From an uncultured delta proteobacterium (lineage in GTDB: Bacteria > Desulfobacterota > Desulfobacteria > Desulfobacterales > JAHEIW01), in NCBI GenBank assembly GCA_963706575.1, contig CAVPNL010000015.1, forward strand, positions 352,001-416,000: DNA of 64,000 nt, given 5' to 3'. A program made the translations under genes and the position numbers. Below are positions 6,990 to 8,058 of this stretch, piece by piece. Each line of letters starts with the position of its first letter. Position 1 is the stretch's first letter. Below the pieces are notes generated by a model that saw nothing but the letters and a program-made list of their open reading frames with translations, searched no databases and was not told the origin of the DNA.

Positions 6990-7316
6990 TTAATTATCTT
7001 CAAATATCCAAAACGATACCGCCGCGCCCGCACCGTCCAAAAACAACTGTTTAAACTTCCAAATACCTTCAGTGGTCAAAGTCAAGGGGCCCAGGATCTT
7101 AATATTCCTGGCCACGAAGACATGGTAGCCTTCCACCACAAAATATCGGTAACCCGAAGCATCCGCCGGCGCCTGGTATACCGGTTCAATCTCTTTTAAA
7201 ACGCCCTTTGGTTCAGCGCGACAAAGATTAAACGTTACGTCTGTAATTCCCTTTTTCTGCATAAATTTTTTCGCGGATGCGGAAAGCTTTATTTTTGTAA
7301 TTCCCATTGAAAACAT
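6990..7316 (-). CDS. Small hypothetical protein, possibly HesB-like / CC-Se-motif-family related
   Basis: IKLSASAKKFM..DVTF..KEIEPVYQAP..Y....VEGYHVFV pattern. Family assignment is from memory only. Confidence 0.55.
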   Translation of the reverse strand: MFSMGITKIKLSASAKKFMQKKGITDVTFNLCRAEPKGVLKEIEPVYQAPADASGYRYFVVEGYHVFVARNIKILGPLTLTTEGIWKFKQLFLDGAGAAVSFWIFEDN

Positions 7317-7396
7317 TTTGGAATTATCCTGGGGTCCTTATAAGATTTGTTTGGATGAGAGGATATTGTTATGGAAAAGGTCATCAAAATTCAAAC

Positions 7397-7437
7397 AAAA
7401 AAATAACGGCTAATCGATTTTTTTCGATTAGCCGTTA
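7397..7437 (-). terminator. Intrinsic terminator
   Basis: TAACGGCTAATCGA / TCGATTAGCCGTTA perfect stem, followed on the minus strand by seven T. Confidence 0.8.
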
Positions 7438-7473
7438 AGGAGGAGAACAGATGAAGAAATTATTAGGCTGCAA
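7397..7473 (-). ncRNA. Candidate sigma54-dependent small RNA with anti-SD/anti-AUG seed
   Basis: Bracketed by a -24/-12 promoter (7484-7500) and a 14-bp hairpin plus U7 terminator (7397-7437). Contains UUCUUCAUCUGUUCUCCUCCUU. Confidence 0.6.
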
Positions 7474-7483
7474 ATGAAGTAAC

Positions 7484-7500
7484 TGCAAAACCCTTGCCAA
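7484..7500 (-). promoter_or_regulatory. sigma54 (-24/-12) promoter
   Basis: Minus strand TTGGCAAGGGTTTTGCA (GG-N10-GC). AT-rich upstream region with an IHF-like site at 7551-7563. Confidence 0.7.
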
Positions 7501-8058
7501 AGATAATTTCGCTCGGCGAAATTATCTATTTTTATTATTTTTATTTTAAAATTCAGGTAGTTATAAATATTAAAATTCCAGCATCGCTGCTTTCACAAAT
7601 AATATGGGGCCCTAAAATTTAGGGGTTCAGTTTATAATTTTTAACCGAATATATCTGAAAATGGAAAAACCTGTTGTTTTTAAACATTTTTTTTATTATT
7701 GGGTGAGGTTCAAAATTTTGAACCACGGCTTTTTTTGCCGGGCAAAAAAAGCATAACTCATTAAAATTAATATATAAAATAGAGTTTATGGCTTTGAACC
7801 CGCCGTGTGTTAGACGGAAAAAAATCCGATAATGGATCCTAAACCGGACAAGGCAGAAATCAATATAAATCTCACGTAAAGACGTCAAAACGCCAGGTTT
7901 TTCATAAATTCCAGCGTGAAAATTTTTCGTCTTGCGAGTTTGCGCGCTTTGCCCGCCGACGCTAAAGCTATGGCGCGACACGCAGCTTTGCGTACTAGCA
8001 AATACCGAGCAATTATCAGGCCAATTTTTTATTGCAGCGCTCATATAACTTAAATCGT

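Follow-up and report, generated by a model that had tools for sequence, protein, structure and literature searches.

The minus strand of the window, a 64,000-nucleotide stretch of a contig from an uncultured delta proteobacterium of the Desulfobacterales, harbors what is, on comparative sequence evidence, a real and conserved small regulatory RNA gene of Desulfobacterales sulfate reducers. The element spans positions 7500-7397: a -24/-12 promoter is followed by some 45 conserved, unpaired bases and then by a 14-bp terminator plus a U7 tract. The preferred explanation, to which a probability of roughly 0.72 is assigned, is that of a stand-alone gene for a trans-acting sRNA of about 77 nt, which is activated by an enhancer-binding protein (EBP) together with sigma-54 and pairs with the start of a porin mRNA. 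The narrower joint claim of the gene plus its sigma-54 control is very probable. The sRNA family is a previously undescribed one of a known kind, and its regulator, its promoter, and its target are all sequence-based predictions. What was computed here comprises the sequence features with their conservation and covariation, the synteny between RNA and regulator, and the complementarity to the target together with its co-variation. The core features are as follows.

7397..7473, minus strand: predicted sRNA of ~77 nt, with the 5′ end placed from the -12 element and the 3′ end at the end of the U7 tract
7484..7500, minus strand: sigma-54 -24/-12 promoter TTGGCAAGGGTTTTGCA, with GG at 7498-7497 and GC at 7486-7485
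7501..7527, minus strand: palindrome AGATAATTTCG-N5-CGAAATTATCT of 12 pairs, adjoining the -24 element
7432..7470, minus strand: conserved single-stranded seed CAGCCUAAUAAUUUCUUCAUCUGUUCUCCUCCUUAACGG, defined by alignment, predicted lack of pairing, and porin complementarity
7445-7439, minus strand: CUCCUCC (anti-SD), part of the seed
7453-7451, minus strand: CAU (anti-start codon), part of the seed
~7468-7457, minus strand: 5′ module GCCUAAUAAUUU, complementary to boxes in the porin 5′ UTR
7397..7437, minus strand: intrinsic terminator with a 14-bp stem, an A6 loop, and U7; compensatory changes in 12 of 12 consensus pairs

The original prediction described a minus-strand promoter, palindrome, terminator, and seed, and each of these is found where it was placed; its reading of the region as a stand-alone minus-strand transcription unit encoding an sRNA is supported by the comparative evidence. 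The element carries its own promoter and intrinsic terminator and no conserved ORF, including on the plus strand. The promoter TTGGCAAGGGTTTTGCA has the GG at -24, the GC at -12, and the fixed spacing of the TGGCAC-N5-TTGCW pattern, with a predicted start (+1) near 7473. The 12 pairs of the adjoining palindrome were recovered by a scan; it is kept in just part of the family-level alignment, with a variable center, and on the plus strand it reads as a terminator-like structure with a T-rich tail.

Comparison with relatives shows where the conserved unit begins and ends. In a BLAST search of positions 7390-7570 against 60 relatives, a full- or near-full-length match is present in 21 of the 24 other genomes of the family, and in the other families of the order the matches start at the promoter and stop at the terminator. 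Within the genus, conservation extends 30 nt past the terminator. A scan for the exact pattern, with one genome per species, yields 99 stretches; the 80 matches examined by title are records of the Desulfobacterales type, namely Desulfatitalea, Desulfonema, Desulfosarcina, Desulfatibacillum, Desulfococcus, an Olavius symbiont, and many MAGs. The matches include a named isolate, Desulfatitalea alkaliphila M08but (L109); Desulfococcus and Desulfosarcina are represented by MAG labels only. In a single match, from Thermoactinomyces, the rest of the element is absent.

A covariance model, R1, was built from an alignment of 102 copies with the promoter excluded, and it matches the RNA in the window with 100.4 bits (E 1.1e-20). 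Conservation of the promoter-seed-terminator arrangement in relatives had been set beforehand as a test, and the arrangement recurs in 109 of 151 genomes sampled evenly across the order (~72%), corresponding to 77 of 109 genera and, among high-quality genomes of the order, 81 of 112. Outside the order, R1 gives two weak matches among the ~146 other genomes of a 151-genome phylum sample, one of which also has the TGGCAC..TGCA motif.

The exact-pattern scan demanded the promoter, and the promoter test was therefore redone on promoter-blind R1 matches: 100 loci were fetched, and the 45 nt upstream of each match, located by its cmsearch coordinates, were examined, with random windows from the same loci as controls. 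The strict sigma-54 motif (TGGCA-N6-7-TTGC[ATC]) lies upstream of 83 of the 102 matches, as opposed to 17 of 12,860 control windows, and a looser motif is found at a further 13 (121 of 12,860 controls). Of the six matches with neither form, four have TGGCA...TTTGA or TTTGT variants; another, L298, resembles on visual inspection a gene start read in antisense. The genome encodes rpoN (206 bits).

The Rfam search with cmscan that the original prediction had proposed matched no family. At gathering scores the whole window gives no match, and at E values up to 10 the RNA region gives nothing credible, with all scores far below the thresholds. The best matches in the region, rli38 (23.5 bits) and NmsRb (19.4 bits), were set aside on these grounds. 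A search of the accessible literature found no description of this RNA, nor of any sRNA with a named target in Desulfobacterales.

The fold of the 77-nt RNA (7473-7397) consists of the terminator hairpin alone, with an essentially open 5′ part; its energy of -21.4 kcal/mol (z -6.0) is matched by none of 200 shuffles. The terminator stem, predicted earlier as 14 bp plus U7 ending at 7397, occupies 7437-7404 with 14 pairs, 6 of them G-C, and is followed by T7 at 7403-7397. RNAalifold on the 102 sequences returns a single helix, the terminator, in which all 12 pairs show compensatory changes, and leaves the seed unpaired. Conservation of the primary sequence is distributed differently: 14 invariant and 28 nearly invariant columns are found among the 102 distinct copies, every one in the 5′ part. 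The seed had been proposed to complement a Shine-Dalgarno sequence (SD) plus a start codon, which is borne out: the stretch UUCUUCAUCUGUUCUCCUCCUU, single-stranded in the fold, is the exact complement of AAGGAGGAGAACAGAUGAAGAA. The spacer UGUUC between the anti-SD and anti-AUG is invariant, yet it has no complementarity to the spacer of this genome's porin, such that some further constraint must act on it.

The trans-acting translational repressor of the original prediction came without a named target; a conserved, co-varying candidate is now supplied by the start of a porin-like gene. A seed duplex screen covered the 13,263 SD-bearing ORF starts of the genome, which were called by a crude rule, with duplexfold energies that take no account of accessibility. 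The energies average -17.1 kcal/mol (sd 4.5, 0.1% quantile -33.9), and the best three of all 13,263 starts belong to three paralogous porin-like genes (-44.9, -44.9, and -40.8 kcal/mol). The next real-looking genes lie near -33 to -36, and the rest of the top 60 are mostly spurious short ORFs with other signal-peptide genes among them. The porin-like protein has 376 residues, a signal peptide, and a C-terminal Phe, and its match to Pfam Porin_2 is marginal (22.5 bits against a cut-off of 22). The two intact copies are on the small contigs C19 and C20. The third (G000:C6:750380-751516) has several stops and frame changes with its leader and start intact, and may be a pseudogene or an assembly artefact.

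The predicted sRNA-porin duplex begins at CCGUUAAGGAGG, continues through AUGAAGAAA, and reaches into the fifth codon. Porin orthologs in relatives share 30-43% protein identity and nonetheless keep the start region; higher up, their leaders also keep one or two GAAAUUAUUAGGC boxes and, close to the 5′ end, a GGAAGGAGGUGA box. In 9 further genomes, the weaker sRNA BLAST matches fall on porin gene starts themselves (twice in G013). Among 36 cognate pairs of porin start and sRNA, the median energy is -31.9 kcal/mol (z -5.3 against dinucleotide shuffles), part of which would come from any strong SD. In contrast, when paired with the seed of this genome, 14 porin starts whose own genomes have no detected sRNA attain about -20 (G078, G136, and G161 were left out of this comparison).

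The two partners also change together. Across 28 genomes, the mean energy is -34.7 for cognate pairs as opposed to -29.6 for non-cognate ones, with 0 of 20,000 permutations as low, a figure that is indicative only because the relatives are not independent and permutation therefore overstates the case. At codon 2, the sRNA agrees with the wobble base in 22 pairs (10 of AAG with C and 12 of AAA with U), and two pairs are discordant, one a mismatch and one a G-U; this count leaves out four sRNAs of another seed type, the rows having been read by eye. Lineage-specific matching changes include CCUGAUAAU with AUUAUCAGG and UUAAUGG with CCAUUAA. For the 5′ module, 12 of 28 cognate pairs contain a perfect run of at least 9 nt against the porin leader, as compared with 0 of 28 reversed leaders. 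The RNA thus has a conserved, unpaired seed that complements, and co-varies with, the SD and start codon of a gene located elsewhere. From these patterns, the sRNA probably shuts off the ribosome-binding site of an outer-membrane porin mRNA, and it is likely that the porin is a directly repressed target.

The distribution of the two genes sets a bound on this assignment. The porin family is detected in 54 of the 151 genomes of the order (E 1e-15). The sRNA is present in 42 of the 54 porin-bearing genomes and in 67 of the 97 porin-less ones, which leaves 12 porin-bearing genomes without the sRNA and amounts to no clear association. The porin cannot be the sole target, since 67 sRNA-bearing genomes lack the family at this threshold, and others must exist. 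Of note, porin leaders in many families (L067, L090, and the porin loci of relatives) keep a GGGAAGGAGGUGAA box some 100-130 nt upstream of the start codon. This box is a near-perfect SD far from any start codon, and might be a 5′ stabiliser, a stand-by site, or a further sRNA site.

Hfq (PF17209) was not found in this genome, which is 91.8% complete; a search of 101 genomes of the order, including 72 high-quality ones, gave no match either. The order thus seems, from these searches, to be without Hfq, such that the long sRNA-mRNA duplex probably forms unaided.

The control region extends well beyond the promoter. Within the family, the 330 nt upstream of the RNA are conserved in blocks (21 aligned loci), and the following features lie in them.

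~7547..7566, minus strand: A/T-rich block with an IHF-like core, TTATAAC.A..TGAATTTTA, conserved in the 21 aligned loci
7624..7646, minus strand: proximal degenerate activator site GGTTAAAAATTATAAACTGAACC at about -164, aligning with GGTTAAAAATTATGAACC of relatives
7707..7724, minus strand: main upstream activator site, the perfect palindrome GGTTCAAAATTTTGAACC, centered about -242 from the predicted start
7782..7800, minus strand: distal activator-like site GGTTCAAAGCCATAAACTC, centered at about -318, in a conserved block

The activator sites are palindromes near -164, -242, and -318, in keeping with the roughly 100-300 bp upstream at which EBP sites are expected. The IHF-like core lies between them and the promoter. 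The IHF-like site predicted earlier at 7551-7563 does fall in a conserved block (~7566-7547), while its match to the IHF consensus was read by eye and has two mismatches. In 27 loci of distant families, the corresponding sites are at about -167 to -177, -243 to -256, and -318 to -333. Palindrome-like sites occur in 25 of these 27 loci, around -170 and -250 and in many cases also -325, with a spacing of about 77 bp, four substitutions allowed, and no shuffle control; the case for them is made by their regular phasing. The 16-mer core of GGTTCAAAATTTTGAACC occurs once in the 5.67-Mb genome, and a genome-wide scan for a regulon gave 5 palindrome matches at two mismatches, no more than scrambled palindromes give (0-5).

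The genomic neighborhood of the RNA in relatives points to the protein that may bind these sites. A Pfam search of 76 flanking ORFs covered 28 wide-flank loci: in 8 of them an EBP (Response_reg, Sigma54_activat, HTH_8) lies directly upstream of the RNA and co-directional with it, and the genes behind the RNA (TPR and PfkB or SH3) are convergent. By comparison of tables by eye, the RNA is at most about 900 nt downstream of an ortholog of this EBP, on the same strand, in 50 of the 109 sRNA-bearing genomes. The window has no EBP gene near it; the nearest of about 33 full-length EBP genes in the genome (41 matched stretches) is 38 kb off. The ortholog is instead encoded away from the RNA, at G000:C6:400508-401881, and is 74% identical to the sRNA-adjacent EBP of a relative (G025), the next best being 52%. 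It is preceded by a histidine kinase gene and followed by TPR/PfkB genes, with just 37 nt to the TPR gene. Since the kinase/TPR/PfkB setting is here without the RNA, the RNA and its control region have moved to where they now lie, flanked by an MFS gene and an Amidohydro_2/DUF362 set.

A search with this EBP separates orthologs (at least 56% identity) from paralogs (at most 50%) by a clean gap. An ortholog is present in 103 of the 109 sRNA-bearing genomes, and also in 24 of the 42 genomes without a detected sRNA. At L212 (G064) and L217 (G047), the GTTCAAAAnTTTGAAC sites are replaced by paired TTTCCAAnTGGAAA palindromes; the adjacent EBP orthologs have a different HTH recognition helix, and the TPR gene is followed by SH3-domain genes. 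This joint change, in two loci as against six, fits the EBP as the binder of the palindromes. With rpoN and a cognate EBP both encoded in the genome, transcription is predicted to proceed from the conserved sigma-54 promoter under a dedicated two-component regulator.

Related loci show some variation on this theme. The genome has an sRNA paralog at G000:C6:88989-89073 on the minus strand (L002), which has the bases CUGCAGCCUACAG..CUUCAUCUGUUCUCCUCCUUAACGG in common and a different terminator, GGGCGACUC..GAGCCGCCC. Upstream of it, a TTGACA-N16-TAnnnT promoter and no sigma-54 motif were read by eye, and this type recurs at 20 further loci of the genus (L041-L060). The sigma-54 form is multicopy or tandem at L172 (3 copies), L167 and L188 (2 each), and L206 (2), and G098 and G113 have 4 model matches each; tandem copies are about 500-570 nt apart, each with its own promoter. 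At L061-L063 and L066 (G023) and at L065 (G012), variants of a core CAUCUGUUCUCCUCCUUAACG (intact in L062 and L063) are followed by a different hairpin, GUGGUGGUUCA. Read on the other strand, these loci present a hairpin, an SD, and a very short ORF.

Two readings of the region would dispense with a trans-acting RNA. The promoter and hairpin might form a leader or attenuator for the minus-strand genes downstream (7316-6990 and beyond), the first of which is as follows.

6990-7316, minus strand: 108-aa gene directly downstream of the RNA, followed by the Amidohydro_2 and DUF362 genes

Against the NCBIfam CC/Se motif family (seleno)protein, this 108-aa gene gives a sub-threshold match, with 30.2 bits where 40 are required. 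The RNA lies upstream of the same Amidohydro_2/DUF362 set in family f1 and several others, and the conservation of the 30 nt past the terminator within the genus would also suit a leader. However, the 14-bp terminator with U7 is strong, and no alternative antiterminator pairing is predicted. Moreover, the convergent TPR/PfkB genes follow the RNA in 8 of 28 wide-flank loci and, as read from tables, in 50 of 109 genomes. With convergent genes behind it, the RNA has nothing downstream to control and is not in general a leader or attenuator; this alternative, also raised in the original prediction, finds no support in these many genomes and is very improbable. Still less credible, with a chance of a few percent at most, is the other alternative raised there, in which the minus-strand features are incidental and the plus strand encodes a micro-peptide, MKKLLGCK (7451-7477), under an SD of its own. 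The SD and ATG are perfect, MKKLLG is kept in most loci, and some of the changes look synonymous, although such a pattern is also what tracking of the porin's first codons would give. The ORF varies from 4 to 64 aa across the 102 distinct loci, with just MKKLLG in common and an end that is not conserved, and the paralog in this genome reads the common bases in another frame. Furthermore, conservation extends to the promoter, the activator sites, and the terminator, each of which faces the minus strand.

A third reading grants the sigma-54-driven RNA and differs on what it does: it could be a broad anti-SD mimic that damps many strong-SD mRNAs, especially those for secreted proteins starting with MKKLL, with the porin as merely the best match or the porin leader as a sponge. 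The stretch CUCCUCCUU resembles the 3′ end of 16S rRNA, from which such damping would follow. The invariant core is the complement of the SD and AUG, the sRNA is more widespread than the porin (the 67 genomes noted above), other signal-peptide genes appear within the top 60 predicted targets, and the extra complementary boxes of the porin leaders would also suit a sponge. In contrast, the porins (-44.9 and -40.8) stand far apart from the next real-looking genes (-33 to -36), and the co-variation is specific to cognate porins. As a replacement for the porin this broader role is unlikely, though better placed than the other two readings; it may coexist with the porin role.

In the preferred reading, a response-regulator EBP with a histidine kinase partner, encoded elsewhere in this genome (G000:C6:400508-401881), would bind two or three GGTTCAAAATTTTGAACC palindromes near -164, -242, and -318. 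The A/T-rich IHF-like block between these sites and the promoter would let the DNA bend, the EBP would open the sigma-54 promoter at 7500-7484, and the transcript would stop at the terminator at 7397. The unpaired 5′ two thirds of the sRNA would then pair with the porin-like mRNA from about -22 to +20 around the start codon, covering the SD and AUG and blocking ribosome loading. The 5′ module may also pair with one or two complementary boxes higher in the porin leader, and the long duplex would probably form without Hfq. A bolder version, tentatively advanced and given slightly less than even odds, is that of an ancient, dedicated, and apparently Hfq-less circuit, run by this whole order of abundant sediment sulfate reducers, that leads from a histidine kinase through the response-regulator EBP and sigma-54 to a single sRNA gene and the porin mRNA. 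The only strong genomic site of the EBP would be the sRNA promoter, the sRNA would clamp both the leader boxes and the whole translation start, and the porin leader could titrate the sRNA.

Metatranscriptome runs were searched as well. Of the 24 runs retrieved, 13 are recorded as RNA, each with just 4-7% of the sampled words. In four runs, available as assembled contigs whose strand and ends are unreadable, some pieces are clearly porin mRNAs of relatives. Other contigs cross the promoter or extend beyond the terminator; these too are assembled contigs only, in which DNA carry-over is possible.

In marine and wetland sediments, a large share of the turnover of carbon and sulfur is due to Desulfobacterales. 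The predictions suggest that outer-membrane permeability in this order is set post-transcriptionally in response to some signal. If the proposed circuit is true, no sRNA regulon would have been defined in Desulfobacterales before it, and it would stand as an Hfq-free equivalent of the envelope-stress sRNAs of enterobacteria. As predicted, it makes up a complete and testable system of a sensor pair, a binding site, a promoter, an RNA present in ~72% of sampled genomes, and a co-varying target, and the sRNA would be a natural case of long-duplex, apparently chaperone-free action. R1 is a ready covariance model for annotation.

Several known systems share parts of this logic. The Qrr sRNAs of Vibrio are transcribed from sigma-54 promoters under the response-regulator EBP LuxO, are sometimes multicopy, regulate translation by base-pairing, and require Hfq. 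The sRNA described here is similar in its sigma-54 promoter, response-regulator EBP, presence in several copies in some genomes, and predicted base-pairing. However, it has other targets and another seed, and Hfq was not found in the order. Its score against the Qrr family (Rfam RF00378) is 15.9 bits (E 7.7) as opposed to a gathering score of 50, and on the plus, and thus wrong, strand. The Qrr precedent invoked in the original prediction accordingly holds as an analogy of logic and not as family membership.

GlmY works through protein mimicry, not through base-pairing at a ribosome-binding site. The GlmY gene is described as adjoining QseE/QseF, the two-component system that activates it through a sigma-54-type activator (PMC8745638). 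The placement of an sRNA gene beside its two-component sigma-54 activator is shared with part of the genomes here. In contrast to GlmY, pairing with a ribosome-binding site is predicted for the present RNA, and the Rfam scans reveal no sequence likeness between the two.

The enterobacterial sRNAs that repress outer-membrane proteins use sigma-E, OmpR, or constitutive promoters, as well as Hfq. MicF, MicC, MicA, RybB, and OmrA/B of this group are reported to pair with the translation starts of porin mRNAs (PMC1804206), as is the short RNA NcS25 of Burkholderia (PMC10117139). The common features are the start region of a porin mRNA as the pairing site and a role in envelope or nutrient control, which for the present RNA is predicted. 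The differences from the enterobacterial sRNAs are the sigma-54 promoter, the duplex of ~40 nt, and the failure to find Hfq. NcS25 was also considered as a sigma-54 porin sRNA and rejected, since its authors describe no sigma-54 motif upstream (PMC10117139).

The RNA described here is predicted to be a sigma-54-dependent base-pairing sRNA in an order that seems to be without Hfq. Campylobacter jejuni is likewise not known to have Hfq. An RpoN-dependent base-pairing sRNA is reported to act in its flagellar hierarchy (PMC11187230). This mode of action is the shared feature; the present RNA differs in its predicted porin target, belongs to an unrelated lineage, and has no Rfam-level likeness to the C. 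jejuni RNA.

The closest parallel is found in Desulfovibrio vulgaris Hildenborough, in which ncRNAs lie downstream of the response-regulator EBP genes DVU0679 (Dv_sRNA2) and DVU0653 (PMC3333781; PMC4641369). In the available text of these reports, no target is named for either ncRNA (Rajeev 2011, PMC3333781; Kazakov 2015, PMC4641369), and the function of Dv_sRNA2 is given as unknown (Rajeev 2011, PMC3333781). D. vulgaris belongs to a different order, and a target is predicted here; no homology to the D. vulgaris ncRNAs emerges from the phylum sample, in which R1 gives just two weak matches among the ~146 genomes outside the order. The arrangement is nevertheless alike: in sulfate reducers of the same phylum, a sigma-54-class response regulator targets an ncRNA just downstream of its own gene.
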